Virus record (IMG/VR): IMGVR_UViG_3300048905_000034
Span: 1-63,250 of that record
DNA: 63,250 bases
Source: a virus
Reading direction: 5' to 3' (one strand)
Both the position numbers and the translations under genes were made by a program. Positions 10,097 through 22,976 of this stretch are shown here, piece by piece. The first letter of the stretch is position 1. Each line of letters begins with the position of its first letter. The notes under the pieces are model-generated. The model was not told the origin of the DNA. It ran no database searches and saw nothing but the letters and a program-made list of their open reading frames with translations.

Positions 10097-10215
10097 GGCA
10101 CGTACTCCCAAGCCCCTACTGTCCGCCACCTTCACCGCATGGGTTGCTTCCCTTCCCGTAGGCACACGTCCTACGCGCTGAATGTCCGCCACTGAATCCG
10201 TCCCGAAAGGTCGCC

Positions 10216-10398: not shown

Positions 10399-10415
10399 TC
10401 CGTCTTGTCATGGAC

Positions 10416-10445
10416 TTGACACGTCTTGTCAAATCATGATACGCT
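10416..10445 (+). promoter_or_regulatory. SigA-type promoter
   Basis: TTGACA - 18 nt - TACGCT (TANNNT); ATGCCCT box 19 nt further, then PAL20. Confidence 0.55.
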
Positions 10446-10482
10446 TGTGTCTTGCCGGTTCACCATGCCCTGAACCGGATCG

Positions 10483-10502
10483 GCGGTTGGTCGACCAACC
10501 GC
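10483..10502. repeat. PAL20 copy with a compensatory arm change
   Basis: gcggttggtcgaccaaccgc: A>G at position 3 and T>C at position 18 keep a perfect palindrome. Confidence 0.85.
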
Positions 10503-10513
10503 CAGCATCACCC

Positions 10514-10524
10514 GGCTACCAACC
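10514..10524 (+). repeat. GGCTACCAACC leader motif
   Basis: ggctaccaaccgaaagaag then ATG 10539. Confidence 0.8.
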
Positions 10525-10538
10525 GAAAGAAGTCCGTC

Positions 10539-10994
10539 ATGAAATCCTTCAGCACGCCCACCGTCCCCACCGTCGCAACACTCACAGCGGCCACCATCGG
10601 CCTCGCTATCGGATGGGCCATCATCGGCCCCACCCCGGACCCACGTACGGACCCACGTACCCCTGCCCCCACGGCCACCAGCGACTCCGCACCGCAGGAG
10701 GATGACCCCGGCTGGGACTGTGCCACCATGGGGAACCGCATCTGCGCTGATCCCGCCCATGTCCACGCCGCCGACGCATGGAAGGCATGGGACACGGCAG
10801 GGGGATGGCGCTACCTGAAGGCCGACCCCAACGTGGAGAACCGCGTGGACTACATCGGCACGGCCATACTCCCACCCAACGTGGACGAATCCCGTGGGTA
10901 CGGCGCTATCCCGTCACGTGATGGGTGGTACGTGTTCCGCGCTGTACCTGTCGACCTTGCCTACGTCACAACGTCCGCCATCGCAGGGAAGTAG
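10539..10994 (+). CDS. secreted/membrane protein, 151 aa
   Basis: Internal ATG of the track ORF 10452; N-terminal hydrophobic segment TVATLTAATIGLAIGWAIIG. Confidence 0.65.
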   Translation: MKSFSTPTVPTVATLTAATIGLAIGWAIIGPTPDPRTDPRTPAPTATSDSAPQEDDPGWDCATMGNRICADPAHVHAADAWKAWDTAGGWRYLKADPNVENRVDYIGTAILPPNVDESRGYGAIPSRDGWYVFRAVPVDLAYVTTSAIAGK

Positions 10995-11002
10995 GGAACG
11001 TC

Positions 11003-11206
11003 ATGCAGTGGATCGAAGCTACCCCGGCATATGGCCGCGACTACACCAACCAGAAGGCGGTACTCGCCGACTGGATGGCGGACAAGGACTTCGTGGAAAC
11101 CACCACGCGGTCCTATGTGAACCGCTCGCAGGCGCAACGGATGGGCCTGTCGGTCATCATCCGATACGACAAGAACCGCAAGGTCATGGACGTCTCCAAG
11201 AAGTAA
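11003..11206 (+). CDS. hypothetical protein, 67 aa
   Basis: ATG 11003 after GGGAAGTAGGGAAC; MQWIEATPAYGRDY... Confidence 0.6.
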   Translation: MQWIEATPAYGRDYTNQKAVLADWMADKDFVETTTRSYVNRSQAQRMGLSVIIRYDKNRKVMDVSKK

Positions 11207-11208
11207 CC

Positions 11209-11219
11209 GGCTACCAACC
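11209..11219 (+). repeat. GGCTACCAACC motif
   Basis: 3 nt after stop 11206, 8 nt before PAL20. Confidence 0.8.
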
Positions 11220-11227
11220 CACGGCCA

Positions 11228-11247
11228 GCAGTTGGGCGACCAACTGC
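11228..11247. repeat. PAL20 copy, G-variant, helix extended to 26 bp
   Basis: ccagcagttgggcgaccaactgctgg (11225-11250). Confidence 0.9.
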
Positions 11248-11268
11248 TGGCCACCGAAAGGAACCATC

Positions 11269-11604
11269 ATGAAAGACCTGCCCACCTCCACCACCGACCA
11301 GCCCCGTATCTCGCTGGAAGAGAAGGAGCGGATACTCGAAGCGCTGTCCATTGCGGTGGAACTCACGCCGCTGAACGCACCCGTCCTGATCGCCACCGCC
11401 TACATGGAAGGCGTGCCCATCGCCGCGCTGGCGAAGTGGTTCCGGGTTCCCCGCACCTTCATGCTGGACTTCGTGAACGTCCAGCTGATCGGCCATGCGG
11501 AGGTCACGCGCCTCACTAGGGCGACACGTGCCAAGGCATCGGCGATGAAGCGCGAAGAGGCCATGCGACAGCACCCGTCCAACGGCACCCGTCCCACCGA
11601 ATAA
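11269..11604 (+). CDS. hypothetical HTH-like protein, 111 aa
   Basis: ATG after GAAAGGAAC; MEGVPIAALAKWFRVPRTFMLDFV resembles a sigma-region-4-type HTH. Confidence 0.55.
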   Translation: MKDLPTSTTDQPRISLEEKERILEALSIAVELTPLNAPVLIATAYMEGVPIAALAKWFRVPRTFMLDFVNVQLIGHAEVTRLTRATRAKASAMKREEAMRQHPSNGTRPTE

Positions 11605-11617
11605 CCCACCCCGGCTG

Positions 11618-11637
11618 GCAGTTGGGCGACCAACTGC
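11618..11637. repeat. PAL20 copy, G-variant, helix extended to 28 bp
   Basis: gctggcagttgggcgaccaactgccagc (11614-11641). Confidence 0.9.
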
Positions 11638-11662
11638 CAGCCACCACCCCGAAGGAATCATC

Positions 11663-11857
11663 ATGGCTACCAACCGAACCCCCAAGCCCGCCACCCCCAA
11701 GCCCGCCGACCTGCCCCTGCCCGTCGTACCCGGCGACGCATGGGTCACGGCCCTGACCCAGCCCGCACCGCCTGAGCGCTTCCTCTGGTGCGACGAGTGC
11801 CACTACTGGCACGCCGAGGTCAACGAGTGCGCCTACACCAGCCGGGTAGGTCTGTGA
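11663..11857 (+). CDS. hypothetical protein, 64 aa (MATN N-terminus)
   Basis: RBS GAAGGAA; the start overlaps ggctaccaacc (11665-11675). Confidence 0.65.
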   Translation: MATNRTPKPATPKPADLPLPVVPGDAWVTALTQPAPPERFLWCDECHYWHAEVNECAYTSRVGL

Positions 11858-12072
11858 TGCCGCGCATGAAGGATTGCCCCGAGTGCAAGGCCAACTACAT
11901 CGCCCCGGAGGACTGGGACTACGCCAACGACGGCGCGTATCCCACCTCCACCAAGCGCGAGGAGAAGCGCGAGCACACGTACTGCGGCATGCGCCTCATG
12001 TCAGGAGGCGACTGGAAGAACCTCATTCTCACCCGGCGCGGTGGCGCGCTCATTCACAACGGAGGCAAGTGA
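11857..12072 (+). CDS. small Cys protein ending in LIHNGGK, 71 aa
   Basis: ATG overlaps the upstream stop (GTGATG); CPEC motif; 3' junction cassette at 12049-12074. Confidence 0.6.
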   Translation: MPRMKDCPECKANYIAPEDWDYANDGAYPTSTKREEKREHTYCGMRLMSGGDWKNLILTRRGGALIHNGGK

Positions 12073-12332
12073 TGGCAACGTATCCGGCGGGCACCAGCAT
12101 CGGCGAAATCACCCACTTCGACCGGGGCACCAAGGTCTGGTTCGGGTGCAAGGAGCACCCGCAGTACGAGTACATGTCCAAGCAACCGAGCGCATCGCAG
12201 TGGTTCCCCGCCAATGAGGCTGCGAAGGCGCTGCAGTGGGGTGCGGTGGACGAGTGCGCCCACAAGTACCCGAGCAGTGACGTGTGGGTCACCACCCGTG
12301 AGTACGACGACGGGCGGGAGACAGCCAAGTGA
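12072..12332 (+). CDS. hypothetical protein, 86 aa
   Basis: ATG overlaps the stop (TGATG), using the GGAGG inside the cassette. Confidence 0.6.
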   Translation: MATYPAGTSIGEITHFDRGTKVWFGCKEHPQYEYMSKQPSASQWFPANEAAKALQWGAVDECAHKYPSSDVWVTTREYDDGRETAK

Positions 12333-12445
12333 TTCTCTTCCACGAGGGCCGTCACTGGAAAGTCACCGGCAGCACATGGGTGCTGCTCACCAACCAAACC
12401 ACCACCGACCAGTTGGTCGACCAACTGCGGGAAGCAGGGGAATGA
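12329..12445 (+). CDS. hypothetical protein, 38 aa
   Basis: GTG overlaps the stop (GTGA); reads PAL20 as QLVDQL. Confidence 0.4.
   Translation: MILFHEGRHWKVTGSTWVLLTNQTTTDQLVDQLREAGE
12409..12428. repeat. PAL20 copy (1 mismatch)
   Basis: ccagttggtcgaccaactgc; 19 nt before ATG 12447. Confidence 0.85.
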
Positions 12446-12446
12446 T

Positions 12447-12731
12447 ATGTCCGTCTCACTCATCAAGGCCAAGGCCATAGCCCGTACCCCGGAGGCATAC
12501 AGCACCGAGGAACTGGACGACGCGCTGACCCGCATCGTCGAGGATGACCGCCTCTCGGAGGCGCAGGTCACCCGCATGCAGGCGAGGATCGACCCGGTCC
12601 TGCGTGCCCGTATCGCCCAGCGCCAGTCACGCATAGCATCAGCCGTAGTGTGGCCGGACATTCCCCGGTCACCCGCAGTTGGGCGACCAACTGCCGAGTC
12701 ATGCGAACAGAGGATACCCAGTGACCATTGA
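12447..12731 (+). CDS. hypothetical protein, 94 aa
   Basis: Track ORF; RBS GGGGAA; its 3' end reads PAL20 as AVGRPTA. Confidence 0.6.
   Translation: MSVSLIKAKAIARTPEAYSTEELDDALTRIVEDDRLSEAQVTRMQARIDPVLRARIAQRQSRIASAVVWPDIPRSPAVGRPTAESCEQRIPSDH
12675..12694. repeat. PAL20 copy, G-variant
   Basis: gcagttgggcgaccaactgc; 27 nt before GTG 12721. Confidence 0.9.
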
Positions 12732-12903
12732 ATACGGCGCACGCCTTCCCCGTTCCGGCGTCGTCTACATGAAAAGCGCAGACCTCCCCGTCGTGCAGGT
12801 GTGGCTGGAGGAGTTCTCCAGCGTCACCCCACTAGAGCTAGTGGTGCGGGAATGTTCGGAACTGAGTAAGGGTCACTGGGTCGCCGTCGCCACGGCCCCA
12901 TAA
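12721..12903 (+). CDS. hypothetical protein, 60 aa
   Basis: GTG after AGAGGA; in frame with the track ORF 12679. Confidence 0.5.
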   Translation: MTIEYGARLPRSGVVYMKSADLPVVQVWLEEFSSVTPLELVVRECSELSKGHWVAVATAP

Positions 12904-12907
12904 AGCC

Positions 12908-12953
12908 GGGTGCAGGTGAGGTCTTTCGGTTGGTAGCCCCCTCGCCTGCACCC
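12908..12953 (+). terminator. terminator-like hairpin with the conserved loop TTTCGGTTGGTAGCC
   Basis: 14-bp stem gggtgcaggtgagg / cctcgcctgcaccc (one G-U), 18-nt loop, then cttcacgttt. Confidence 0.65.
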
Positions 12954-12963
12954 CTTCACGTTT

Positions 12964-12989
12964 GGCTACCAACCACCCGGCTACCAACC
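12964..12989 (+). repeat. two tandem GGCTACCAACC motifs
   Basis: 12964-12974 and 12979-12989; exact complement of the hairpin loop at 12928-12938; followed by GAAGGAG and ATG 13004. Confidence 0.85.
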
Positions 12990-13003
12990 CGAAGGAGCAC
13001 ATC

Positions 13004-13330
13004 ATGGAATGGAACGAACAACTGGCCAAGGCCAAGGCCAACGGCAGGGAGTACGCGGACAACGGCATTGCCGGTGGCGAGAAGTCACCCGCCGAGTCGC
13101 CGCTGTCAGGGGAATGGGCGGGTGCGCTCACCCCACGGGACGTGGTCAACATGGCCGCTGGCGATGGCGCGTACGACAACGCGCAGGAGTTCGAGGTCAC
13201 GGACCTGTGCGACGCATGGGAGGACGGCTACCTGTCCGCGTCATGGCCCGAGCCTGCGGGTGAGGTGTGCGAGCACGGCATGTCCGCTTCGCTGTGCGGC
13301 GGACCGATGCACTGGTACGACCATGGCTGA
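13004..13330 (+). CDS. hypothetical acidic protein, 108 aa
   Basis: ATG 13004, RBS GAAGGAG 7 nt upstream. Confidence 0.65.
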   Translation: MEWNEQLAKAKANGREYADNGIAGGEKSPAESPLSGEWAGALTPRDVVNMAAGDGAYDNAQEFEVTDLCDAWEDGYLSASWPEPAGEVCEHGMSASLCGGPMHWYDHG

Positions 13331-13553
13331 GCAGGATACCCCGGTGCCCATGATGTCTACGGGCGTGCCCAGCACCCTCGGCAACTGGCATGCGATGTGC
13401 TTGGCCACGTTCGGCGATGGCTCAGCGGCCACGGCATTCATCAAGGCGAAGCTCGACGAGCAGGGCGCGGACATGGCCGTGCTCTCGGACGAGGGGCAGT
13501 TGCTCTACGCCCTCATGGTCATGCACTTCAACGGTGCGGAAGGTGGTTGCTGA
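13323..13553 (+). CDS. hypothetical protein, 76 aa
   Basis: ATG 13323 overlaps the end of the previous gene; in frame with the track ORF 12930. Confidence 0.55.
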   Translation: MAEQDTPVPMMSTGVPSTLGNWHAMCLATFGDGSAATAFIKAKLDEQGADMAVLSDEGQLLYALMVMHFNGAEGGC

Positions 13554-13565
13554 CTTCCCATCGAC

Positions 13566-13595
13566 TTGACAAGAGTGGTCAAGTCGTGATAGAAT
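13566..13595 (+). promoter_or_regulatory. SigA-type promoter
   Basis: TTGACA - 18 nt - TAGAAT; ATGCCCT box at 13614, PAL20 at 13631. Confidence 0.7.
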
Positions 13596-13630
13596 TAGAG
13601 TAGCGGGGGAAGTATGCCCTCGTACGGCCA

Positions 13631-13650
13631 GCAGTTGGGCGACCAACTGC
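13631..13650. repeat. PAL20 copy, G-variant, helix extended to 28 bp
   Basis: gccagcagttgggcgaccaactgctggc (13627-13654). Confidence 0.9.
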
Positions 13651-13657
13651 TGGCACC

Positions 13658-13668
13658 GGCTACCAACC
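13658..13668 (+). repeat. GGCTACCAACC motif
   Basis: ggctaccaaccgaataggaaac then ATG 13686. Confidence 0.8.
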
Positions 13669-13685
13669 GAATAGGAAACATCATC

Positions 13686-13928
13686 ATGGCTACCACCACC
13701 GGCCCCCTCACCGACCGTGAAATCCAGATGGCCCTGACCATCGACGACATCGAAACCCGGCGTGCCAGCATGCACCGTATGCTCACCAGTAACCGGTGGC
13801 TGCTTGCCACTGCGCTGGACGCCATCCGCAACGGCGACAGCCACGTGGCGGACGAATACGTCGACCGTTTCCTCACGCATCTTGATGCGGAAATCACCCA
13901 CCAGACCACCACCAAACCGACGGCTTGA
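13686..13928 (+). CDS. hypothetical protein, 80 aa (alternative start 13614)
   Basis: ATG 13686 after AGGAAAC; the in-frame upstream ATG 13614 would translate PAL20. Confidence 0.6.
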   Translation: MATTTGPLTDREIQMALTIDDIETRRASMHRMLTSNRWLLATALDAIRNGDSHVADEYVDRFLTHLDAEITHQTTTKPTA

Positions 13929-13931
13929 ACC

Positions 13932-14090
13932 ATGCGTACGCAACCCACCAGCGATGAATGCCCCTCACCCACCACCCGCATTGACCCTCACTGGCCGATG
14001 GGACCGGAGGTTATCGACCTCTTTGCCATCATCAGGGCGGAGGTCGCGGCCACTCTCGCGGCCATGGGAGGGCGTGATGAACGACGATGA
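13932..14090 (+). CDS. hypothetical protein, 52 aa
   Basis: ATG 13932; overlaps the next gene by 14 nt. Confidence 0.4.
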   Translation: MRTQPTSDECPSPTTRIDPHWPMGPEVIDLFAIIRAEVAATLAAMGGRDERR

Positions 14091-14307
14091 ACTGTTCTCC
14101 TCGGCTCACCACCGCGAGAAGGTGCAATGCACCATCTGCGGGAGGGCCGGGTACCCGGGTGGCTCATGGCAGGTTGCCTGCCGACGGGGCCACCCATGGG
14201 CATGCTCCTGCGGGCGCAGGTTCAACGGTCTTGCGAGCCTAGCCGGGCATCTTCGGCATGCCGGGCAGGATCACTTCACAGCTTCACGGCCCACCACGGG
14301 CCGATGA
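14077..14307 (+). CDS. zinc-finger protein (C2H2-like), 76 aa
   Basis: RBS GGGAGGG; CTICG...CSCGRRFNGLASLAGHLRH. Confidence 0.55.
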   Translation: MNDDELFSSAHHREKVQCTICGRAGYPGGSWQVACRRGHPWACSCGRRFNGLASLAGHLRHAGQDHFTASRPTTGR

Positions 14308-14310
14308 TCG

Positions 14311-14330
14311 GCAGTTGGGCGACCAACTGC
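14311..14330. repeat. PAL20 copy, G-variant
   Basis: Starts 3 nt after stop 14307. Confidence 0.9.
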
Positions 14331-14363
14331 AACCACCACCAAATTGAATAGGAGTTATCCGTA

Positions 14364-14756
14364 ATGATTGCTGCGACTTTCCACGGAACTAATCACTACA
14401 TACCGAATTACGATGAATCAAGCATCGAGGTATTCGAGAATATCGGGCATGCAATTTCCGCATTGTTCGCCCGCTATGAATCCCACGGTGAGGGAAACCT
14501 TGAAGCCCGCTACCTGAACGGTGGCAAGTGGCGCAGGCCCTTCCATGTGGAACTGGGCGACAGCTTCGAGTGCTACGTGATCCCCGACGACTTCGCCGCA
14601 CTGCCCGGGGACGACGCCATCACCCTCGAAGCGATGACCGCCGTGCATGCAGGGCTGTGGTCATACAAGCTCAGGCTCATGCGCCCATGGAATTTCCCCG
14701 GGGACACCCCCGATTCCAGTGTCGCCGTCGCTGTGGAGAAGCGGGTGGCACTGTGA
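14364..14756 (+). CDS. hypothetical protein, 130 aa
   Basis: Track ORF; RBS TAGGAG. Confidence 0.65.
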   Translation: MIAATFHGTNHYIPNYDESSIEVFENIGHAISALFARYESHGEGNLEARYLNGGKWRRPFHVELGDSFECYVIPDDFAALPGDDAITLEAMTAVHAGLWSYKLRLMRPWNFPGDTPDSSVAVAVEKRVAL

Positions 14757-15112
14757 ACCCGGCACTCAACGTCGCCTGCCCCACCTGCCATGTACGTGCA
14801 GGGGAGCCATGCACCCGGCCAACGGACACCACCCGCGTCGGCGTGGGGTACGTCCACCTCTCCCGGGAATCCCTCGGCAAGTACGGGATGCAGGACTTCA
14901 TGCTCACCTTCGGCCTCCAGTATGCGGAGGAAGAGCACCCGCGCTGGCCGGAGTGCAACCCGAAGGGCTGGGTGCGGATCACGGCCACGGACTATGAGGC
15001 TGCGCGGGCCATGGCCGTTGAGCGGTTCGGTCTGGACTGGTCTGTCCTCACCCCGTATTGGCGTTTCCAGTCACGGTACTTCCCTGCCGGGGAACTCATG
15101 GTGCTGCCATGA
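14753..15112 (+). CDS. hypothetical protein with an N-terminal CxxC...C motif, 119 aa
   Basis: GTG overlaps the stop (GTGA). Confidence 0.55.
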   Translation: MNPALNVACPTCHVRAGEPCTRPTDTTRVGVGYVHLSRESLGKYGMQDFMLTFGLQYAEEEHPRWPECNPKGWVRITATDYEAARAMAVERFGLDWSVLTPYWRFQSRYFPAGELMVLP

Positions 15113-15195
15113 AGCTGCGGTTGCTGTTCGCCGTCGCTATGGTGGGGTCCTTCCTCATGGGCTGGGCACTGGCCGACCTCACCCGCATGCCATGA
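15109..15195 (+). CDS. small membrane protein, 28 aa
   Basis: MKLRLLFAVAMVGSFLMGWALADLTRMP; ATGA overlaps at both ends. Confidence 0.45.
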   Translation: MKLRLLFAVAMVGSFLMGWALADLTRMP

Positions 15196-15611
15196 CCGAG
15201 TGGTGGGACAGTGCGGACGCCAGCAGGTACGGCCCGCGCTACTACGACCCCAAGGGCAGGCCCATGAGCATGCGCCGATGGGCGCAGTCGATGGGCAATG
15301 AACGGCACGTAGGCGAGAGCATCCTCCGCATACGTGGCCGGTGGTACCGGGTGTCCACCGTCTGGCTGGGGCTGGACCACAGCTTCTTCGGTGGCCCGCC
15401 GCTGATCTTCGAGACGATGATCTTCGGCGGCGACCGCGACACGGACCTCATGATGTGGCGCTACTCCACCGCAGACGAGGCCATGCGTGGGCACGTGCGT
15501 GCCGTGCGTTTTCTAAAAAGGAACGTGCGCGAGGCACGGCATCCACAACTTATCCACAACGGTCGGAAACCGACAGCAGTTGGTCGACCAACCGCCAACA
15601 GAAAGAAGTAA
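15192..15611 (+). CDS. hypothetical protein, 139 aa, with a LIHNGRKP tail followed by translated PAL20
   Basis: Internal ATG of the track ORF 14790; STVWLGLDHSFFGGPPLIFETMIFGG core. Confidence 0.6.
   Translation: MTEWWDSADASRYGPRYYDPKGRPMSMRRWAQSMGNERHVGESILRIRGRWYRVSTVWLGLDHSFFGGPPLIFETMIFGGDRDTDLMMWRYSTADEAMRGHVRAVRFLKRNVREARHPQLIHNGRKPTAVGRPTANRKK
15576..15595. repeat. PAL20 copy (1 mismatch)
   Basis: gcagttggtcgaccaaccgc; 19 nt before ATG 15615. Confidence 0.85.
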
Positions 15612-15614
15612 CCC

Positions 15615-16244
15615 ATGGCTACCAACCCAACCGCCGCCTCCAACACGTGGCTCAGTGACATCGTCACCGCAATGCGCCACCTCGGAGGGCAGGCAACCCT
15701 CAGCGAACTGTACGACGAGTTGATCCAGATGCGGCTGAACCTTCCCGACTCATGGAAGGAGGTCATCAGCCGGGTCATCCAGAACCATTCGTCGGACGCC
15801 AGCGATTTCAACCCGAGCTTCACCGACCTGTTCTACTCAGTGAGTGGCCTCGGCGCTGGGCGCTGGGGATTGCGGGGGGTCACCCCGGACAACCCTGCTA
15901 TCCCCTTCGTCGTCCACTATGCGCTGGACCTAGAGTCACCGCCCCTCATTGCATGCGAGGCACCGGACCCGATCAAGTGGTCGGCCAAGGCCAGCGAGGT
16001 CACATGCCGGGACTGCATGACACATGAGCAGTTCCCCCAGTCGGCACGGAAGGTGGAGGACATCACCGAACCGCCCACCATCACGGCAAACGACGTGCTC
16101 AGGGTGGCGGCGGACCTGATCGTCGATGCCAACTACGACTACACCAAGGCCATCGTCGCCATGACCAGCGAACTGCTTGGCGCTGGTCACGGCGACACCA
16201 TCCTCATGACCCGCATCCTGCGGTCACTGGCACAGGGAGATTGA
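15615..16244 (+). CDS. winged-helix (HARE-HTH / Mrr-N-like) domain protein, 209 aa
   Basis: N-terminus ...AMRHLGGQATLSELYDELIQ...W..VISRVIQNHSSD...GRWGLR; the start overlaps ggctaccaacc (15617-15627). Confidence 0.5.
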   Translation: MATNPTAASNTWLSDIVTAMRHLGGQATLSELYDELIQMRLNLPDSWKEVISRVIQNHSSDASDFNPSFTDLFYSVSGLGAGRWGLRGVTPDNPAIPFVVHYALDLESPPLIACEAPDPIKWSAKASEVTCRDCMTHEQFPQSARKVEDITEPPTITANDVLRVAADLIVDANYDYTKAIVAMTSELLGAGHGDTILMTRILRSLAQGD

Positions 16245-16246
16245 CC

Positions 16247-17133: not shown

Positions 17134-17135
17134 CC

Positions 17136-18155
17136 ATGGAAATGCGAACACCCACCGACGTGCTCGCTCTCATCCCGACAGCGATGGAGCGCAAGCCCGA
17201 GGAACTTCTGGTCCTCATCTGCATCAAGGACAACGGCCTGCAAGCGATCCTCGGCATGCAACATTGCACTGACATAGGCGAAGCGGGTACCTACGCGGAA
17301 GCCGTCATCGAACAGATGGTGCAAATGAAACCGGACGCGCTGGTCATGGTGTTCTACACCGAGGAGGAATCCGACTGTAGCCATGAGCCATACGAGCACG
17401 TGGCCATCGTCCTGAAGGTGGCGGTCGAAACGCTCACCCCCATGGAGTGCCACCCCCCCATCCTCGTGAAGGGCGGGCGCTTTCACACCTACGGCACGGA
17501 CGAATGGCATGACCTTGACGAGGTGAAGCAGTCAGCAATGGCTGCGGACTTGGTGCTGCATGGGTTCCAGTTGGAACCAACCGGCCCGGTAATCCCCGAC
17601 CCGACGGCGGTGACCGATGACCTCACCGCACGTATCGACGATGCAGTGTCGTCCATCCCCGAGTTCCCGAAGTACATGACGGATACGTGGGCGACCCCGT
17701 ATGTGGTGGAGCTTCGGCAGTTGTACGACCACCTGCTGAACCGTGGGTTCGGTGCCACTGAAGATGAGGCGGTGCAAGTCATTGCCGCATTCCAATCCCC
17801 GACCCTTCGGGACCGGCTCATGGTGGACACGATCAGCCACACCGACAACGTCATGCAGTTCGGCGAAACGATCACCGGGCTGAGTGATGCGCCGCTGGAC
17901 CATAGCCGTCTGGTCACGGGGCTGGCCCTCATGGACAACCTCATGCAGTACACCGCTGACCGGCACCGGCTCCCCGTCCTCGTCACCTGCGCATGGTTCC
18001 ACTGGATGCTTGGCCGGACGCTGGATGCGGTCACGTACTGCGAGGAGGCGCTGAAGGTGGACCCGGAGTACGGGCTTGCCAAGGCGTTCGAGCGGTACAT
18101 CACTGACCTGATGCGGATACCCGTCCACGTTCTGCACTCGGACGGTCAGGAATGA
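17136..18155 (+). CDS. DUF4192-like protein, 339 aa
   Basis: N-terminus RTPTDVLALIPTAMERKPEELLVLICI and the length resemble the actinobacterial DUF4192 family (from memory, not searched). Confidence 0.5.
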   Translation: MEMRTPTDVLALIPTAMERKPEELLVLICIKDNGLQAILGMQHCTDIGEAGTYAEAVIEQMVQMKPDALVMVFYTEEESDCSHEPYEHVAIVLKVAVETLTPMECHPPILVKGGRFHTYGTDEWHDLDEVKQSAMAADLVLHGFQLEPTGPVIPDPTAVTDDLTARIDDAVSSIPEFPKYMTDTWATPYVVELRQLYDHLLNRGFGATEDEAVQVIAAFQSPTLRDRLMVDTISHTDNVMQFGETITGLSDAPLDHSRLVTGLALMDNLMQYTADRHRLPVLVTCAWFHWMLGRTLDAVTYCEEALKVDPEYGLAKAFERYITDLMRIPVHVLHSDGQE

Positions 18156-18355
18156 GGAAGCCGTGGAAGGCGCGGTGGGGGGAGGCGTCAGGGAAGGGTC
18201 ACTACACCAGCGTCATGCCGTTCCTCTACGGGGCGCGGTACGTGGTGTGCAAGGAACCGGGGTGCGGTCACGTCATCCGCAACACCCTCGTCTGGCCACC
18301 AATGGAGCCGCTGATCCACAAGGGAGGTAAGCCATGGCGAAGAGGAAGACGGTGA
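18152..18355 (+). CDS. small Cys protein carrying a LIHKGGKP motif, 67 aa
   Basis: Track ORF; cassette at 18311-18336. Confidence 0.5.
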   Translation: MRKPWKARWGEASGKGHYTSVMPFLYGARYVVCKEPGCGHVIRNTLVWPPMEPLIHKGGKPWRRGRR

Positions 18356-18486
18356 ACATCCACCTGAAGAACTATGGCCTGATCCTGCACATGCCACTGC
18401 GGGACTACCGCAGGCTCATGGCGCGGTACCAGCGTGAGGTACTGCGCCGAAAACCACTACTACACAACGGAGGTAAGCCACGGTGA
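18334..18486 (+). CDS. hypothetical basic protein, 50 aa, ending LLHNGGKPR
   Basis: ATG 18334 sits in the cassette RBS context; carries its own cassette at 18460-18485. Confidence 0.45.
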   Translation: MAKRKTVNIHLKNYGLILHMPLRDYRRLMARYQREVLRRKPLLHNGGKPR

Positions 18487-18704
18487 CAGAAGTTGGTCGA
18501 CCAACTGCAAAGCCCAAACCGCCGAGGGTGGCGCTATGGGTCACGGAAAAAGAACTGCGCATCATCGCCGAGAAGTTCGAGGGGTTCCGTGGATCGCTGG
18601 CTGATGCGATCAGCGAAGCCCACATCGAGGCGAGGAAGGCTCGGACCCAGCACAACAGGGCGCTGCGGCAGTACCGGCACGCAAGAAGGGATATGGCGTC
18701 ATGA
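18483..18704 (+). CDS. hypothetical protein, 73 aa (alternative GTG 18528)
   Basis: GTG overlaps the stop (GTGA); its 5' end reads PAL20 as EVGRPTA. Confidence 0.5.
   Translation: MTEVGRPTAKPKPPRVALWVTEKELRIIAEKFEGFRGSLADAISEAHIEARKARTQHNRALRQYRHARRDMAS
18489..18508. repeat. PAL20 copy (1 mismatch)
   Basis: gaagttggtcgaccaactgc. Confidence 0.85.
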
Positions 18705-18907
18705 CATTTGAGCACGACATCGTGGGCAGGATGACGGCGTTCGAGAACGGGGAACTGGACGACGATCAGGCATTGGAACTGTTCGGCGAACTCATCAAGA
18801 GCGGCATGGCATGGCAGTTGCAGGGTGCCTATGGGAGGACAGCCGGGGACCTCATTGCACGCGGCATCATCACACCCGAGGGTGAAGTGGTGGTGCGCGA
18901 TGAGTAA
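18701..18907 (+). CDS. hypothetical protein, 68 aa
   Basis: Track ORF; ATGA overlap. Confidence 0.6.
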   Translation: MTFEHDIVGRMTAFENGELDDDQALELFGELIKSGMAWQLQGAYGRTAGDLIARGIITPEGEVVVRDE

Positions 18908-19076
18908 GCACCGGCTGTCTGTCCTATGGGCAGACGATTCGCTGACGATCTTGGACTTACCATCCAAGGCTGCGGCCATCGACTGGCTGGCCACGCATGA
19001 CACCGACCGGCCCATACTCACAGCCAGCATCATCCCCGTCGAGGATGACGATGTCATCGAACAGGAGGAACCATGA
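18900..19076 (+). CDS. hypothetical protein, 58 aa
   Basis: Internal ATG of the track ORF 18825. Confidence 0.5.
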   Translation: MSKHRLSVLWADDSLTILDLPSKAAAIDWLATHDTDRPILTASIIPVEDDDVIEQEEP

Positions 19077-19546
19077 ATGCCGCCAAGCCCCGGCCACGGC
19101 CCTGCGCGTCCTGCCCCTACAGGCAGGGCGTGCCTTCCGGCGTCTGGGATGCCAGCGAGTACGTGAAGTTGCCGGAGTACGACGGCGAGACGTTCGACCA
19201 GCCGGTGGGGGCGTTCATGTGCCACCACAAGGACGGCGCAGTGTGTGCTGGCTGGCTCGGGTACGGTGATCCGACCCGTCTGCTGGCCGCACGCATTGGG
19301 GTCATGACCGGGCAACTGGACCCGTCCGTCATGGACTACAAGACCGACGTGCCACTGTTCTCATCCGGCGCTGAAGCTGCGGCCCATGGCATGCGGGACA
19401 TCCGACATCCCAGCGAGGATGCGGAGGAAGCCATGCGCAAGATCGTCGTCACGAGGAGTGTTGTCGGCGATGGGTTCCCGGTCTACTGCAACACCTGCGG
19501 TGGCAAGGACGGGCGTCATTCGTACCACTGTCACAACGACCGATAG
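19073..19546 (+). CDS. Cys-rich hypothetical protein, 157 aa
   Basis: CASCPYR...FMCHH...VCAGW plus a C-terminal CNTCGG...HCH. Confidence 0.6.
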   Translation: MNAAKPRPRPCASCPYRQGVPSGVWDASEYVKLPEYDGETFDQPVGAFMCHHKDGAVCAGWLGYGDPTRLLAARIGVMTGQLDPSVMDYKTDVPLFSSGAEAAAHGMRDIRHPSEDAEEAMRKIVVTRSVVGDGFPVYCNTCGGKDGRHSYHCHNDR

Positions 19547-19557
19547 GGGGTGAGGAA

Positions 19558-19794
19558 ATGTTGCGGGTCATCGTGCCGGTGCTGGTGATCCTCCTGCCCC
19601 CGCTGTTGGGGGGCATATGGCTCGTCCATGAAGTGAGGCTCTACCGCAGGGAGGAGGCATGGCGGCGGCGCAGACAACAGGTTGATGCGCTCCGCGTTGC
19701 GCTCTACAGGAGGGCTGCGGAACGGGATCGAGAGGCTGCCGAACGGGAAGCCTTCGACCGCAAATTGAAGGAGGAAGAAGATGGTGATGCGTAG
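19558..19794 (+). CDS. membrane protein with a charged coiled tail, 78 aa
   Basis: N-terminal TM helix VIVPVLVILLPPLLGGIWLV. Confidence 0.65.
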   Translation: MLRVIVPVLVILLPPLLGGIWLVHEVRLYRREEAWRRRRQQVDALRVALYRRAAERDREAAEREAFDRKLKEEEDGDA

Positions 19795-20218
19795 TGCAGT
19801 TGGGCGACCAACTGCTGTGGGCTTCGTTGTCGCGCTGATACTGAGTGCTTCGTTGGTGATGGGGTCAGGCACGGTAGCGTCCGCCCGTCCCCCCACCCCC
19901 GAGCAAGCCATCGAGGCGCTGGCCCCCGGTCAGCACGTGGTCCTCGGGAATGTGGTGGTGGCGCGTACGGTGCATGGCTTGGTGGTCGACGTGTTGGACC
20001 AGAGTCCGACCACTGCCTCGTTCTGCGGGGTGGCGCTGGCCTCGGCCATCTTCGGGATCGGGGCCGGGATTCTGGGTGTGATCGCTGCATCCACCGGCGG
20101 CTCGGGCACCGTCATGATCGCCGGGTATTTGCTGACCGGCGCGCAGGTCGGCGTCCTAGCTGGACTATCCGGTAGCTACGCCGCATTGCTGGCGTGGATC
20201 AGCCGCTTCATCTGTTGA
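19781..20218 (+). CDS. secreted/membrane protein, 145 aa
   Basis: RBS AAGGAGGAAG; signal-like N-terminus whose n-region is PAL20 read as AVGRPTA; C-terminal TM helices. Confidence 0.6.
   Translation: MVMRSAVGRPTAVGFVVALILSASLVMGSGTVASARPPTPEQAIEALAPGQHVVLGNVVVARTVHGLVVDVLDQSPTTASFCGVALASAIFGIGAGILGVIAASTGGSGTVMIAGYLLTGAQVGVLAGLSGSYAALLAWISRFIC
19796..19815. repeat. PAL20 copy, G-variant
   Basis: Starts 2 nt after stop 19794. Confidence 0.9.
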
Positions 20219-20231
20219 GAGAAGGAATGAA

Positions 20232-20360
20232 ATGGACCCCGTCACAGCATGGGCAATCATCATCATCGTCGGCCTGTTTCTGGTCGCGCTGACTATAGCT
20301 CTGGTCCGCAGGTGGGACCGGGAAAACCGGGCAAAGTACCCGGATCGAGAGAGGAAGTAG
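20232..20360 (+). CDS. small membrane protein, 42 aa
   Basis: MDPVTAWAIIIIVGLFLVALTIALVRRW...; RBS GAGAAGGAA. Confidence 0.5.
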   Translation: MDPVTAWAIIIIVGLFLVALTIALVRRWDRENRAKYPDRERK

Positions 20361-20366
20361 GGATAG

Positions 20367-20489
20367 ATGGGACGCCACTACGACTATCGGAAGCTGGGGA
20401 CCGGTCATCGGCACAAGCAAAGCGTCTGGGAGCAGGTGCGGGGGCTGGCCCGCGCCTACTACAGGCGCTGGAAAAGGGGGCAGAAGTGA
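20367..20489 (+). CDS. small basic protein, 40 aa
   Basis: ATG after GGAAGTAGGGA. Confidence 0.4.
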   Translation: MGRHYDYRKLGTGHRHKQSVWEQVRGLARAYYRRWKRGQK

Positions 20490-20495
20490 CATGAC

Positions 20496-20524
20496 TTGCC
20501 AAACCTCCCATCTTTATATAGACT
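20496..20524 (+). promoter_or_regulatory. SigA-type promoter
   Basis: TTGCCA - 17 nt - TAGACT; PAL20 35 nt downstream. Confidence 0.55.
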
Positions 20525-20559
20525 TGGGAAGTTGTCTCCAAACGTCTCCAAAGATAACC

Positions 20560-20579
20560 GCAGTTGGGCGACCAACTGC
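20560..20579. repeat. PAL20 copy, G-variant
   Basis: 31 nt before ATG 20611. Confidence 0.9.
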
Positions 20580-20610
20580 AATCACCAACCCATAAGGAAA
20601 CCCACATCTA

Positions 20611-20943
20611 ATGAATGCAGCTAAACGAGCAAAGTCCGGCAACGCGAGGGCTGGGGCACGTACCTCCCAGCAGACTCATATCGTGCAGGAAAGCCGCTAC
20701 GTTGATCCGCTTTCGGGTCGACCACGCAAGCTCGCTTCAGGCGCAATGACCGCAATCCAGCGCGAGTTCCAGAGCGGCATCCCCACTAGGGAACTGGCCG
20801 AACGCTACGGCGTATCGACCTCGCTGATATTGCAGGTCTGCTACTTCACGCCGAAGGGCGTTGCCCCTAAGCGTCCGCGCCCACTGGATCAGCGTCCGGT
20901 GGTCATGCCAGTAAGGAACGATGAAGGAGGGAACGCATCATGA
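20611..20943 (+). CDS. HTH DNA-binding protein, 110 aa
   Basis: GIPTRELAERYGVSTSLILQV helix-turn-helix; first gene after a promoter. Confidence 0.6.
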   Translation: MNAAKRAKSGNARAGARTSQQTHIVQESRYVDPLSGRPRKLASGAMTAIQREFQSGIPTRELAERYGVSTSLILQVCYFTPKGVAPKRPRPLDQRPVVMPVRNDEGGNAS

Positions 20944-21752
20944 AACAGCACATCAAACTGCAGGACGTAGTCGAGGCCAACAATCTGCTCATGTCTATGG
21001 GCGCGCAGGACCAACTGTCGGTCATTGCCTCAGCGGCCATCGAGAGAAGCCTTGAACTCCAGCACCGTATCGACCGCGCTGTCCGGTACGCGGAGGAGAG
21101 CCACACCAGTTCACTGCACGCCCGTCAGATTCTCCGCATACTCGATGGGTCCATCACCATCGACGATGAGAACAACGAGGTCATCCCCGAGCCGGTCATC
21201 AATCAGGGCACGCTTGACGCCGCTGTTTTCGACGCCGCCTACCCCCGGCTTGTCCAGCGACCACCACTGGAAGCACCACCAGCCAAGAGGTCACACCATG
21301 CCAAGAAAGAGGGCGGGCTGGGTGACCGGAACACCGCAGAGCGCAAAGCGTTCCGCGACTGGGTGGCTCAGCAGGGCATCGAACTTCCGCTGAATCAGAC
21401 GGTGCCTCAGCAACTGATAAACGAGTTCGATGAAGCGACGGACGGCCTCTATAGGCCCAAGCCGCGCAAGCCGTACACCTACAGCGGCAAGGGTCCACGC
21501 GGGAAGCTGAAGCCGGGTCACGGGCTGTCGGGGCGTACCGCTGAGGAGCGGTTGCACATTCGGAACTGGCTCACCGAGCAGGGCTACGACGTGAACCCAA
21601 CGGGACGCATCCCGCAGAGGTACCTCACCCACTACGACCAAGCCATGGAAGCGCTGAAGCAGTTGCAGGCGGAGAACCGGCGGAAGCAACAGGAGGCACG
21701 GTCAGGGCAGGAGCAGGAGCCGGAGCAGGACGACCATGCCCAAGGTGCGTAG
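20940..21752 (+). CDS. protein with two Lsr2-like C-terminal DNA-binding domains, 270 aa
   Basis: Two copies of R..AER..(I/F)R.W...QG.......G.(I/V)P..... : RNTAERKAFRDWVAQQGIEL... and RTAEERLHIRNWLTEQGYDVNPTGRIPQRYL. Confidence 0.6.
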   Translation: MKQHIKLQDVVEANNLLMSMGAQDQLSVIASAAIERSLELQHRIDRAVRYAEESHTSSLHARQILRILDGSITIDDENNEVIPEPVINQGTLDAAVFDAAYPRLVQRPPLEAPPAKRSHHAKKEGGLGDRNTAERKAFRDWVAQQGIELPLNQTVPQQLINEFDEATDGLYRPKPRKPYTYSGKGPRGKLKPGHGLSGRTAEERLHIRNWLTEQGYDVNPTGRIPQRYLTHYDQAMEALKQLQAENRRKQQEARSGQEQEPEQDDHAQGA

Positions 21753-21891
21753 ACGCGACGGGTGGTGGCGCAGTCTTGAACCATTCGACAGGCTGGTCAT
21801 GGTCTGCGCCATCCTCGCTGTCCCAGCCGTCATCGCGTACTGCTTGCTCGGCGCGGTCATCTGCGTCCTGTTCTTTGTCAGCAGGCTGTGA
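21736..21891 (+). CDS. small membrane protein, 51 aa
   Basis: MPKVRRRDGWW... followed by a TM helix. Confidence 0.5.
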   Translation: MPKVRRRDGWWRSLEPFDRLVMVCAILAVPAVIAYCLLGAVICVLFFVSRL

Positions 21892-22157
21892 TGGACGACG
21901 ACGGGAAGCGGGTAGTGCTCAGGATGAGAGCAGCTTTGCGGCTGCTCTCCCCTGACGACATCACGCCGATGGGCAGACGGATTCTGGAAAACATTCTGGA
22001 CGACGAAGAGGACTGGCCGACATCCGGCACGGAGGTGTGCAAGCACTGCTCCGAGTTGATCTACCAGACCGGGATGGGGCGCTGGCGTCACGCCAATGGC
22101 ATGTATACCTGCACCATCCAGATGCCACGGCCACTGCCCAAGGCCGAACCCAACTAA
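21891..22157 (+). CDS. hypothetical protein, 88 aa
   Basis: ATG overlaps the stop; CKHC...C motif. Confidence 0.55.
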   Translation: MDDDGKRVVLRMRAALRLLSPDDITPMGRRILENILDDEEDWPTSGTEVCKHCSELIYQTGMGRWRHANGMYTCTIQMPRPLPKAEPN

Positions 22158-22165
22158 GGAACACC

Positions 22166-22381
22166 ATGAAATTCAAGAAGGACACTAGGCAGGACCGCGC
22201 CGTGGTCACCATCACCCGGGAGGAGTACGTCTTCGAGGACGGTGAAATCTGGTGGCGGTACGGCAGTGAGTTCAAGGACCCGTACATCAGAGAGGTGAAG
22301 CGGGACAGCTGGGTGGTCAACAGCAAGACAGGTCAGTCTCGCCAGAGCGAACTAGACCGCAAGATCATGGGTGAGCGGTGA
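22166..22381 (+). CDS. hypothetical protein, 71 aa
   Basis: RBS TAAGGAAC. Confidence 0.55.
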   Translation: MKFKKDTRQDRAVVTITREEYVFEDGEIWWRYGSEFKDPYIREVKRDSWVVNSKTGQSRQSELDRKIMGER

Positions 22382-22530
22382 TGCGTGAGGTACTGGAACG
22401 GATTTTCATTGGCCTGAGTGAGGTCTTGGAGAGGGTCTACTACACCGGCTGGGGCTGTAAGCACGGCAAGCACCGCATGAAGTTCAGCGGGTGCATGTAC
22501 TGCGGGCAGACCACTGACCACCGGCTGTGA
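22381..22530 (+). CDS. small Cys protein, 49 aa
   Basis: TGATG overlap; GCKHGKH...CMYCG. Confidence 0.45.
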   Translation: MREVLERIFIGLSEVLERVYYTGWGCKHGKHRMKFSGCMYCGQTTDHRL

Positions 22531-22563
22531 CCGGATGACATGCCCGGTCACGCCTACCCAAAC

Positions 22564-22592
22564 TTGACAAACTACCTAATTCTTGATATAAT
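22564..22592 (+). promoter_or_regulatory. consensus SigA/sigma70 promoter
   Basis: TTGACA - 17 nt - TATAAT; ATGCCCT box at 22613, PAL20 at 22632. Confidence 0.8.
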
Positions 22593-22631
22593 GGTAGTAA
22601 GAGGGGAAAACTATGCCCTCAGTCTGGCCTA

Positions 22632-22651
22632 ACAGTTGGTCGACCAACTGC
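22632..22651. repeat. PAL20 copy (1 mismatch)
   Basis: acagttggtcgaccaactgc. Confidence 0.85.
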
Positions 22652-22660
22652 GGCACAAGA

Positions 22661-22954: not shown

Positions 22955-22976
22955 CTACCAACCGAAGGAAACAATC

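Follow-up and report, generated by a model that had tools for sequence, protein, structure and literature searches.

Organization of the early-arm leaders

The subject of this analysis is a set of early-arm leaders in a 63,250-nucleotide (nt) stretch of viral DNA (IMG/VR record IMGVR_UViG_3300048905_000034), which is called the window throughout. Three of its promoters (P1, P2, and P3) are followed by a short box, ATGCCCT, and then by a palindrome that recurs along the genome. A fourth promoter (P4) is followed by the palindrome, and a gene for a 68-residue protein, the candidate binder of this palindrome, lies at the head of the opposite arm. Judged from the sequence, each of the P1–P3 leaders consists of two separable modules, namely a promoter-specific hairpin and a non-specific copy of the palindrome.

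Bases 1–127 of the window are an exact repeat (100% identical) of bases 63124–63250. Such identical ends point to the overlap of a circular assembly, with a genome of 63,123 base pairs (bp); its G+C content is ~62%. The capsid protein is 52–60% identical to the capsids of the Arthrobacter phages Ranunculus, MellowYellow, Tank, and Wilde, and the gene order agrees with theirs; Tank and Wilde belong to Cluster AP (PMC5513430). By its ends and its protein similarities, the window represents the entire circular contig of a siphovirus, uncultured so far, whose relatives are the Arthrobacter Cluster AP phages. No cultured phage matched at the DNA level when positions 10000–23000 were compared by megablast with 50,697 phage records, and sensitive blastn of the P2 leader against phages returned chance matches only. 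The minus-strand late genes run from ~8630 down through the origin to 36133, the plus-strand early genes occupy 9057–36018, and a strong hairpin (36045–36080) separates the two converging arms.

Related phage fragments (L-numbered below) were collected by a 20-mer scan of metagenome contigs and by look-ups of homologues of the first gene after P1. They are ~65–94% identical to the window across alignable DNA. The promoter-plus-box pattern had at least 118 loci in IMG/VR, mostly unrelated; the only relevant one was L102, which is on the same contig as L035 and has a leader identical to that of L030. The P3-gene protein found no relatives in IMG/VR. The promoters and the first genes after them are as follows.

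10416–10445, plus strand: promoter P1, TTGACA (10416–10421), 18 nt, TGa-TACGCT (10440–10445)
10539–10994, plus strand: first gene after P1, 151 amino acids (aa), start ATGAAATCC; PHROG 30102, unknown function
13566–13595, plus strand: promoter P2, TTGACA, 18 nt, TGa-TAGAAT (13590–13595); consensus match 11/12
13686–13928, plus strand: first gene after P2, 80 aa, begins MAT...; AGGAAAC and then ATGGCTACC; orthologous start conserved
20496–20524, plus strand: promoter P4, TTGCCA-17-TAGACT; palindrome at 20560–20579; no ATGCC box
22564–22592, plus strand: promoter P3, TTGACA, 17 nt, TGa-TATAAT (22587–22592); consensus match 12/12
22673–22954, plus strand: first gene after P3, 93 aa; homology with the gene 92 region of Ranunculus

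A previous sequence-only reading of the window had placed three promoters, boxes, and palindromes here, and every one of its coordinates was exact on re-check. Its description of the promoters as strong and SigA-type was borne out by the hexamer matches and by conservation in the relatives. An extended -10 element (TGn) precedes the -10 hexamer in P1, P2, and P3. Only P2 and P3 lie within two mismatches of TTGACA-N16-19-TATAAT in the whole genome (both strands), and our own composition estimate gives ~0.1 sites within one mismatch of the consensus by chance. The -10 hexamer of P1 (TACGCT) is the weakest of the set. Orthologues of P1 occur in L190, L191, L192, and L193, where they read TTGACA-17/18-TAGAGT or TAATGT; those of P2 occur in L015, L190, L191, and L192, and those of P3 in L030, L031, and L044. 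P4 is conserved in five relatives (L030, L031, L035, L044, and, at 11736, L191), and the distance from its -10 hexamer to the palindrome is 35 nt in the window versus 25 nt in four relatives.

The P2 and P3 orthologues keep the complete series TTGACA-17/18-TA(G/T)AAT, 18–20 nt, (A)ACT/AGT-ATGCCCT, 10–12 nt, palindrome. When seven leaders were aligned, almost all invariant columns fell in the -35 element, the extended -10 element, the ATGCCCT box, and the palindrome. Sequence upstream of the -35 element could not be aligned among the relatives, and the stretch between the palindrome and the start codon carries indels. Because the promoter elements are kept while their flanks diverge, the arrangement is not due to chance. 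By their hexamers and their conservation, P1–P4 are early-arm promoters of the host RNA polymerase (SigA-type), with predicted start sites.

The homologues of the P1-gene protein are 46–79% identical to it, and tblastn found a match in Ranunculus within gene 106 (66819–67292). The start of the P2 gene, ATGGCTACC(A), was found again at other early genes. For the P3 gene, a GGAG ribosome-binding site (GGAGCA...) and the ATGACTCAG start at 22673 are kept in L030, L031, and L044.

Several further repeats were seen around these promoters. The sequence GGCTACCAAC occurs 11 times (0.06 expected) between 9059 and 25471 of the window (e.g., at 10514, 11209, 12964, 12979, and 13658), in the P1 and P2 leaders, in further intergenic gaps, and in the first codons of four early genes. 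As a gene start it reads ATGGCTACCAAC, or GTGGCTACCAAC at 9057, and encodes M-A-T-N; it resembles the palindrome half-site CGACCAAC. Upstream of P1, TCCGTCA(T/C) is present three times within 43 nt (10037–10079). The direct repeat CGTCTTGTCA flanks the -35 element of P1 (10401–10431) and creates an inverted repeat, TTGACA...TGTCAA, inside the promoter; P2 contains TTGAC-N7-GTCAA. These repeats upstream of P1 and within P1 and P2 could be sites for another regulator. In most of these promoters, a conserved motif, CTTCC(C/T)A, is found 5–7 nt upstream of the -35 element (P2, 13554–13560; P1 and P3 orthologues, L190 at 9860 and L031 at 5451), and it may be a further promoter-associated element. 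An unusual C-rich tract, CCCCCCCTCCCCCCTCCCCCCTGTCCCCCGTGTCCCC (9922–9958), lies directly 3' of the palindrome at 9907, inside a ~700-nt stretch of low coding content between the first early gene and P1.

The ATGCC box and the 5' hairpin around it

The box ATGCCCT is located at 10465–10471 (P1), 13614–13620 (P2), and 22613–22619 (P3). In the sequence-only reading, the ATG of the box was in frame with the downstream gene in two cases and opened a two-codon frame in the third. This is correct: the frame is free of stops up to the downstream ATG in P2 and P3, and reads MP-stop in P1. The accompanying claim that the box is a nucleotide-level signal was supported by the P3 orthologues, in which the frame stops early (ATGCCCTGA in L031 and L044, four codons in L030) and indels break it. 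The box is invariant in seven leaders while the open reading frame (ORF) that it opens is not conserved, which argues for a nucleotide signal. A role of the box ATG as the start of the gene was ruled out by the orthologues, where the true starts at 10539, 13686, and 22673 are conserved.

The heptamer itself had to be shortened. Although ATGCCCT is conserved in the P2 and P3 orthologues, the P1 orthologues (L190–L193) carry CATGCCAC, that is, ATGCCAC, so that the core common to all three promoter classes is ATGCC. The window contains 18 copies of ATGCCCT versus 7.6 expected, and most of the others are within coding sequence. A fourth copy, at 25601, had been listed as preceding the replication gene; this stretch does not align with L030, which has no equivalent box there, and on this comparison the copy is a chance occurrence. 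In IMG/VR, the box-plus-palindrome pattern was matched by L001 only, and the ATGCCCTC found there is a late-gene ribosome-binding site, GAGGGCAT, read on the opposite strand. The near-matches to the box beside late-arm palindromes are likewise reverse complements of ribosome-binding sites.

What the earlier reading had overlooked is a 5'-terminal hairpin that contains the box. In all leaders with a box, the fold shows a small hairpin starting 0–5 nt after the predicted start site (+1), which was set 7 nt after the -10 hexamer. Six distinct box leaders were folded, with hairpin z values from -1.1 to -4.9. The hairpins of the window are given below.

10455–10478, plus strand: P1 5' hairpin, CCGGTTCA / loop CCATGCCC / TGAACCGG; box (10465–10471) almost wholly in the loop
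13603–13623, plus strand: P2 5' hairpin, GCGGGGG / loop AAGTATG / CCCTCGT; ATG in the loop, CCCT in the 3' arm
22601–22620, plus strand: P3 5' hairpin, GAGGG / loop / CCCTC; box at 22613–22619

The P1 hairpin has a fold energy of -12.6 kcal/mol (z = -4.1). Its stem reads CCGGUUCA/UGAACCGG in the window versus GCCyAUUyCGU/ACGrAAUAGGC in four relatives (L190–L193), around the same CAUGCC loop, and in the alignment five pairs are changed on both sides. Paired cells make up 88.9% of this alignment, compared with 26–46% when the partners are slid, and one of 500 shuffles reached the observed value. The structure is thus kept while the stem sequence is turned over around a fixed loop motif, which is the signature of an element of RNA type.

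The P2 hairpin (-11.5 kcal/mol, z = -2.7) and its L015 orthologue (-15.8 kcal/mol, z = -4.9) differ, by eye from the folds, by one compensatory change from U-A to A-U. The P3 hairpin has a fold energy of -8.9 kcal/mol (z = -2.3); its orthologues (L031, z = -3.0; L030, z = -1.1) form hairpins in a shifted register (AGGGC/GCCCT in L031). In the P2- and P3-type hairpins, whose loop holds the AUG, a variable G-run (GCGGGGG, GAACGGGGG, GAGGG, AGGGC) pairs with CCCUC in a constant 3' arm. RNAalifold on the mixed P1, P2, and P3 leaders gave a consensus of only 3 bp for this first hairpin, with no covariation, because the pairing register differs between the promoter classes. No relevant match to Rfam covariance models was found in positions 8200–37400, where the sole hit with E ≤ 1 was an unrelated sucC (E = 0.81) at 18415. 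The same order of promoter, unique 5' hairpin, and family repeat was found at the Tank promoter 65167 and the Ranunculus promoter 66785. At the RNA level, the 5' hairpin would be a terminal structure by which the early transcripts are protected or marked, and the AUGCC in its loop, or at the junction of loop and 3' arm, may be read by some factor.

The dispersed palindrome and the 68-residue protein

The second module of the leaders belongs to a family that is distributed over the whole window. Its copies and their core start positions are as follows.

1386–62822, no strand assigned: palindrome family, consensus GGCAGTTGG(T/G)CGACCAACTGCC; 29 copies within one mismatch of the 14-nt core
Core starts, first part: 1390, 3169, 6527, 9021, 9907, 10486, 11231, 11621, 12412, 12678, 13634, 14314, 15579, 16719, 18492
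Core starts, second part: 19799, 20563, 22635, 25073, 26356, 27681, 29616, 31322, 33632 (variant), 36021, 37259, 44940, 51156, 55304, 62801
10483–10502, plus strand: palindrome in the P1 leader, GCGGTTGGTCGACCAACCGC
13627–13654, plus strand: palindrome in the P2 leader, core GCAGTTGGGCGACCAACTGC (13631–13650); complementarity extends to 12 bp per arm
22632–22651, plus strand: palindrome in the P3 leader, ACAGTTGGTCGACCAACTGC

The core GTTGG(T/G)CG(A/C)CCAAC occurs 28 times exactly, 29 times with at most one mismatch, and 39 times with at most two; counted as strand-hits, 65 were observed versus 1.5 expected. The early arm holds 21 of the 29 copies and the late arm 8. Most lie 15–45 nt upstream of start codons, chiefly those of early genes, several are inside genes (including portal, terminase, and tape measure), and four are 25–39 nt downstream of a promoter -10 hexamer. 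The fixed leader proposed by the sequence-only reading was not supported in this respect: a palindrome does follow the box after 10–12 nt, but it is not specific to these promoters, being a genome-wide repeat that is also present in most early intergenic gaps and in the late arm. Its proposed position at roughly +30 to +50 agrees with the value of about +30 to +53 on the predicted transcripts. In the P1 orthologues, the palindrome is the variant GCAGACGGTCGACCAACTGC (GCAGATGG in L192). An origin as a host repeat was rejected, since a search of 185,579 genomes of bacteria and archaea gave just 12 hits, all of them single and scattered.

The stem of the palindrome shows almost no compensatory variation: as read from the table of copies, one change is compensated and three are not. 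Complementarity beyond the ten conserved pairs was not above background, and G.U pairs were not enriched on the sense strand. The ten pairs are thus conserved as sequence rather than as pairing.

Different palindromes are dispersed in a comparable manner in the cultured relatives. Ranunculus has 29 copies of GCCGGACGTCCGGC, (A/T)AAC(C/T)GCCGGACGTCCGGCAGTAA, in positions of the same kinds as in the window, and Tank has 29 copies of GGGTCGG-NNNN-CCGACC(C), placed like the window repeat. Repeats of these types are not mentioned in the Arthrobacter phage paper (PMC5513430), and they appear to be previously undescribed. Directly after the window palindrome at 36021 is a 12-bp GC-rich hairpin at 36045–36080 (CCCCCCACTTCC...GGAAGTGGGGGG), which is likely a bidirectional terminator. 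The same layout of palindrome and then hairpin is found in Ranunculus after its RusA gene.

The palindrome can be resolved into two inverted 12-nt units (GGCAGTTGGTCG), and these units recur in tandem beside the gene for the 68-residue protein.

8424–8630, minus strand: 68-aa ORF, candidate palindrome binder; head of the opposite arm
8637–8665, minus strand: promoter of the 68-aa gene, TTCATA-17-TATAAT, then 6 nt, then ATG
8673–8695, plus strand: two head-to-tail half-site units GCAGTTGGTCG with a 12-nt period, just upstream of the -35 element of the minus-strand promoter

Since the ATG follows the -10 hexamer after 6 nt, the mRNA of this gene would be leaderless. The same geometry is found in five relatives and in L197 and L198. 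One to three direct tandem units are present at the same place in L190, L193, L036, and L028 (five phages with the window), and L197 and L198 have related units at the corresponding place upstream of their 68-aa-type gene. In these two distant homologues, covariation between protein and half-site was not clear, as the contigs are too short. Outside the core set, the half-site AGTTGGTCG occurs six times (0.5 expected), four times free-standing and twice in degenerate palindromes. Half-site variants are GCAGTTGG, GCAGACGG, ACCGTCGG, and TGTCGG; among these, GCAGACGG is found at 33632, in the P1 orthologues of L190, L191, and L193, in the L036 tandem unit, and in L196, and it would put two mismatches into an RNA stem.

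The 68-residue protein is one of a small family of 66–73 aa. A word-indexed protein search found one homologue only, a full HMMER search found 14, and the ORF was called as a gene in L190 and L193; tblastn gave no convincing homologue in Tank or Ranunculus. The family alignment shows a beta-strand, a helix, a G-x-S/T/N turn, and a second helix, which is the ribbon-helix-helix (RHH) pattern. Pfam matches were below threshold (RHH_3, E = 0.023, for the window protein; RHH_1 in 4 of 14 members, best E = 6e-4). The best natural PDB hits of the family profile, in its N-terminal half, were CopG, NikR, and RHH-type antitoxins, all non-significant (E ≥ 0.08). AlphaFold2 performed poorly on the single sequence (predicted local distance difference test, pLDDT, 64), whereas with an alignment of 12 sequences it gave a model with a pLDDT of 93, comprising an extended N-terminus, two helices, and a beta-hairpin. 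In Foldseek, the RHH proteins CdbA and Arc had template modelling (TM) scores of 0.59–0.71 when normalized to the target and 0.48–0.52 when normalized to the query. Taken with the predicted model, these similarities suggest that the protein is probably of the DNA-binding RHH type, and it is our candidate for binding the palindrome.

The cassette of this gene is flanked by the palindrome TCCGTATGACGGA (8702–8714) and its near-copy CCCGTATTACGGA (8390–8402). Motifs resembling CCGTAT(A/T)ACG are at the same place in the relatives and also near the left ends of Ranunculus and Tank. Elsewhere, three exact copies of GTTTCACGTGAAAC, which we take to be the core of the canonical bacterial parS site, were found in Ranunculus and one in the early arm of Tank. 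Both phages encode a ParB-N-like protein, with a window homologue at 5629–6210 (minus strand). The window also contains an Ala/Pro/Gly/Thr-rich tandem repeat (9562–9699) inside the first early gene (9057–9839), and tandem repeats of 132 nt and 201 nt (45827–46090 and 46516–46865) within the gene for the 1907-aa tape measure.

Proposed function, alternatives, and kinship with known systems

The explanation that we prefer, and hold to be about as probable as all others together, combines SigA-type promoters, an AUGCC 5' hairpin, and the palindrome as a DNA operator of the 68-residue protein. The host RNA polymerase would start at P1–P4, and the P1–P3 transcripts would begin with a protective or recognized 5' hairpin that displays AUGCC. 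The 68-residue RHH-like protein, made from its own leaderless transcript, would bind the 12-nt units as DNA and autoregulate at its own promoter. Bound at ~+30 to +50 of P1–P4 and in the early gaps, it could act as a roadblock to the elongating polymerase, and such roadblocks would shut down the early arm in the fashion of stoperators. A DNA operator is suggested by the occurrence of the 12-nt unit in tandem at the promoter of an RHH-like gene, and further by the near-absence of compensatory variation in the palindrome, the lack of complementarity beyond ten pairs, the recurrent variant GCAGACGG, the isolated half-sites, and the absence of the repeat from host genomes. For the palindrome taken by itself, a stoperator-like DNA operator is the best reading, about twice as probable as an RNA hairpin; the latter is a serious rival, and both could be true.

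Several observations weigh against this explanation. Owing to the single asymmetric position of the palindrome, 11 of the 13 asymmetric copies have a sense-strand GCGA (GNRA) loop, so that the asymmetry points with transcription in both arms. In Tank, the repeat (GGGTCGG-GYAA-CCGACCC) has a sense-strand GNRA loop in 21 of 29 copies, including two in the late arm that come right behind the genes for the major head and major tail proteins, and such oriented loops are predicted by a role in RNA and not by a dimeric DNA binder. P4 is conserved yet has no box, and the box is thus not required for promoter function. The RHH assignment draws on sub-threshold Pfam and PDB hits and on a model that had no significant match when compared with the PDB by Foldseek (best E = 0.48), and there are two alternative binders, an RHH-annotated homologue (4562–4948) and a winged-helix protein (28617–28991). 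No integrase is annotated in Ranunculus or Tank, and the phage looks lytic; a repressor of the lysogeny type would not be expected in such a phage.

The alternative that deserves most attention is that the palindrome works in RNA, as hairpins of 8–13 bp with a UCGA or GCGA tetraloop that would punctuate the polycistronic early transcripts and serve as processing sites, 3' or 5' stability elements, or operators of a translational repressor beside each ribosome-binding site. Each P1–P3 leader might then consist of two consecutive RNA hairpins; we regard this alternative as possible, but as less likely than the preferred explanation. Hairpins are predicted in every leader. Copies of the palindrome are in transcribed gaps just upstream of ribosome-binding sites, the copy at 36021 precedes the terminator of the early operon, and the late-arm copies at 3169 and 6527 are among those with a sense-strand GCGA. 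Between its two arms, the Tank repeat reverses orientation together with transcription, and the asymmetry in Ranunculus is also consistently oriented. However, in 17 of 29 Ranunculus copies this asymmetry forms a sense-strand C.A mismatch, with G.U possible only in the antisense strand, and in the window family the orthologous palindromes flip the asymmetry to antisense in P4 (L031 and L044) and P2 (L191). A role in RNA is also at odds with the invariant stem sequence, the conserved mismatched variant GCAGACGG, the lack of an Rfam match, and the direct tandem half-sites beside the promoter of the 68-aa gene, which are conserved although they are unable to form hairpins. The annotation of a 178-aa protein encoded at 4948–5484 (minus strand) is contradictory. 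The protein was matched with PHROG 645 (E = 8e-20; label 'Rnase E'), its Ranunculus homologue (gene 13) is annotated as a helix-turn-helix DNA-binding protein, and the positional counterpart in Tank (gene 12) is annotated as Rnase E; this conflict of annotation bears on the proposed processing role.

The remaining alternatives concern the box and the origin of the leaders. The box could be a translation start at which a Shine-Dalgarno-like G-run and AUG CCC load a ribosome at the 5' end; translation of a mini-ORF or of an N-terminal extension would then shield the mRNA or unfold the palindrome hairpin for the downstream gene. GAGGGG or GGGGG is indeed 5–8 nt upstream of the invariant AUG in every leader of the P2 and P3 types, and the box ATGs of P2 and P3 in the window are in frame with the gene. 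We nevertheless consider this function unlikely: the P1-type leaders have no Shine-Dalgarno sequence and carry their AUG in a hairpin loop, the G-run is predicted to be paired with CCCUC, the peptides read across the palindrome differ in frame, and the ORF varies from two codons (P1 of the window; the P3 orthologues of L031 and L044) or four (P3 of L030) to read-through elsewhere. Quite unlikely, too, is an action of the box on DNA or on RNA polymerase during escape, where it would be a promoter-proximal pause site or would bind a second regulator (~+13 to +19), with the palindrome in phase 10–12 bp downstream. It would account for the tight spacing of 18–20 nt from the -10 hexamer and 10–12 nt to the palindrome (seven P2- and P3-type leaders and P1 of the window), and for the shift of exactly 10 bp in the P4 distance among the relatives. 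Moreover, by our reading of the alignment, the published Escherichia coli elemental-pause consensus, G(-10)...T(-1)G(+1), is matched in seven of seven leaders with the pause at the U of AUG. Against it, pairing persists although the complementary arm has drifted, and covariation is seen in the P1 stem, as in RNA-type elements; in addition, the spacing of the inverted repeat around the box varies (7, 8, and 10 nt) in a manner unlike a protein site, and the constant spacing may reflect shared descent. Such descent, taken as the entire cause, would mean that the three leaders derive by paralogy from a single promoter cassette and that the heptamer they share is a residual identity with no separate function. 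P1 and P2 do share additional promoter identity (ACTTGACA.G....GTCAA.TC.TGATA) and a downstream CCGGCTACCAACCGA block. The box is, however, invariant across lineages whose coding DNA is only ~65–80% identical and whose sequences ahead of the promoters cannot be aligned, and the ATGCC core survives full replacement of the P1 stem. From the pattern of conservation, residual paralogy is unlikely as a simple cause of the shared arrangement, and a heptamer devoid of any function of its own is extremely improbable.

Beyond the preferred explanation, in which the palindrome is a DNA operator, we entertain a broader proposal that we hold to be less likely than not. Apparently lytic phages of the Arthrobacter type might run from early to late expression by a genome-wide roadblock of independent origin from the Cluster A stoperators; the leaderless 68-residue RHH protein would bind the ~30 dyads built from the 12-nt unit, each lineage (the window group, Ranunculus, and Tank) would have its own repeat, and the AUGCC loop in the 5' hairpin of the strongest early promoters would be read by a second, RNA-directed factor.

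Dispersed dyad repeats of actinophages, such as the Cluster O 17-mer, have so far been described without a known binder or function. The window repeat can be resolved into a 12-nt unit that stands in tandem at the promoter of one small gene, which makes both the candidate binder and the unit directly testable. Three lineages related to Cluster AP carry different repeats in the same genomic positions and form a natural specificity-swap series. As Tank and Ranunculus are cultured, the question of RNA versus DNA is open to RNA-end mapping in infection. The combination of promoter, 5' hairpin, and operator would be a compact, conserved expression module for high-GC Actinobacteria, and the hairpin adds a conserved 5' motif without a known reader.

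The closest described pattern is the 17-bp dyad repeat of the Cluster O mycobacteriophages, TGTTCGGNNNCCGAACA, which has no known binder. It is present in 34 copies in Corndog, together with 8–9 SigA-like promoters, and a dimeric DNA-binding protein was proposed for it (PMC4351075). In both cases, ~30 near-invariant short palindromes are spread over an actinophage genome of ~60–70 kb, are enriched in short gaps of the non-structural arm with a few beside strong SigA-type promoters, and are absent from host genomes. The two differ in sequence and in architecture (7-N3-7 in Cluster O, contiguous arms of 10 + 10 bp here), as well as in phage lineage and host, the nearest cultured relatives of the window being Arthrobacter phages. 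The tandem half-sites provide a candidate binder that Cluster O lacks, the central asymmetry follows transcription in the window and not in Corndog (PMC4351075), and a conserved 5' hairpin or box has not been described for Cluster O (PMC4351075).

The L5-type phages of Cluster A have more than 20 copies of a repressor site, some of them at promoters and the others in the small gaps between genes in both arms (PMC9283540). The former were proposed to stop initiation and the latter elongation, and the orientation of the sites correlates with transcription (PMC9283540). The window likewise repeats one short site many times, both beside promoters and between closely spaced genes. In contrast, the L5 site is a 13-bp asymmetric sequence for the monomeric two-domain helix-turn-helix immunity repressor of a temperate phage, while the window has a 20–22-bp dyad of 12-nt units, a 68-residue RHH-like candidate binder, and a phage group with no annotated integrase. 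As to orientation, the central base alone is asymmetric here (11 of 13 with transcription), and orthologues flip. By analogy, the window system would work like the L5 operators and stoperators, but it is not a member of that system, since the symmetry of the site and the type of protein differ.

RHH repressors (Arc and Mnt of phage P22, CopG, MetJ, and omega of pSM19035) are very small proteins that recognize direct and inverted subsites about one helical turn apart and autoregulate from sites beside their own promoters. The 68-residue protein resembles them in its size, in the strand, helix, turn, and helix pattern of its alignment, in units that are direct in one place and inverted in another, and in the repeated subsites next to its own promoter (1–3 units in five phages); the known examples control one or a few promoters, whereas the window has ~30 sites genome-wide. 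Stabilizing 5'-terminal stem-loops of bacterial and phage mRNAs (ompA type) have to be positioned no more than a few nt from the 5' terminus. The hairpins described here begin 0–5 nt from the predicted +1 and likewise keep their structure while the stem sequence changes, but an invariant AUGCC loop motif is not a feature of generic 5' stabilizers and suggests specific recognition. The lambda nut sites (boxA, spacer, and boxB hairpin) and the HK022 put RNAs are situated downstream of early promoters, as is the linear box of the window, which is followed ~10 nt on by a hairpin with, in some copies, a GNRA loop. Unlike boxB, this hairpin has ~29 copies across the genome, mostly far from promoters, and neither an N-like protein nor an Rfam hit was identified. 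Overall, the kinship of the system is with the Cluster O dyad repeats, the Cluster A stoperators, and the 5'-terminal stem-loops.

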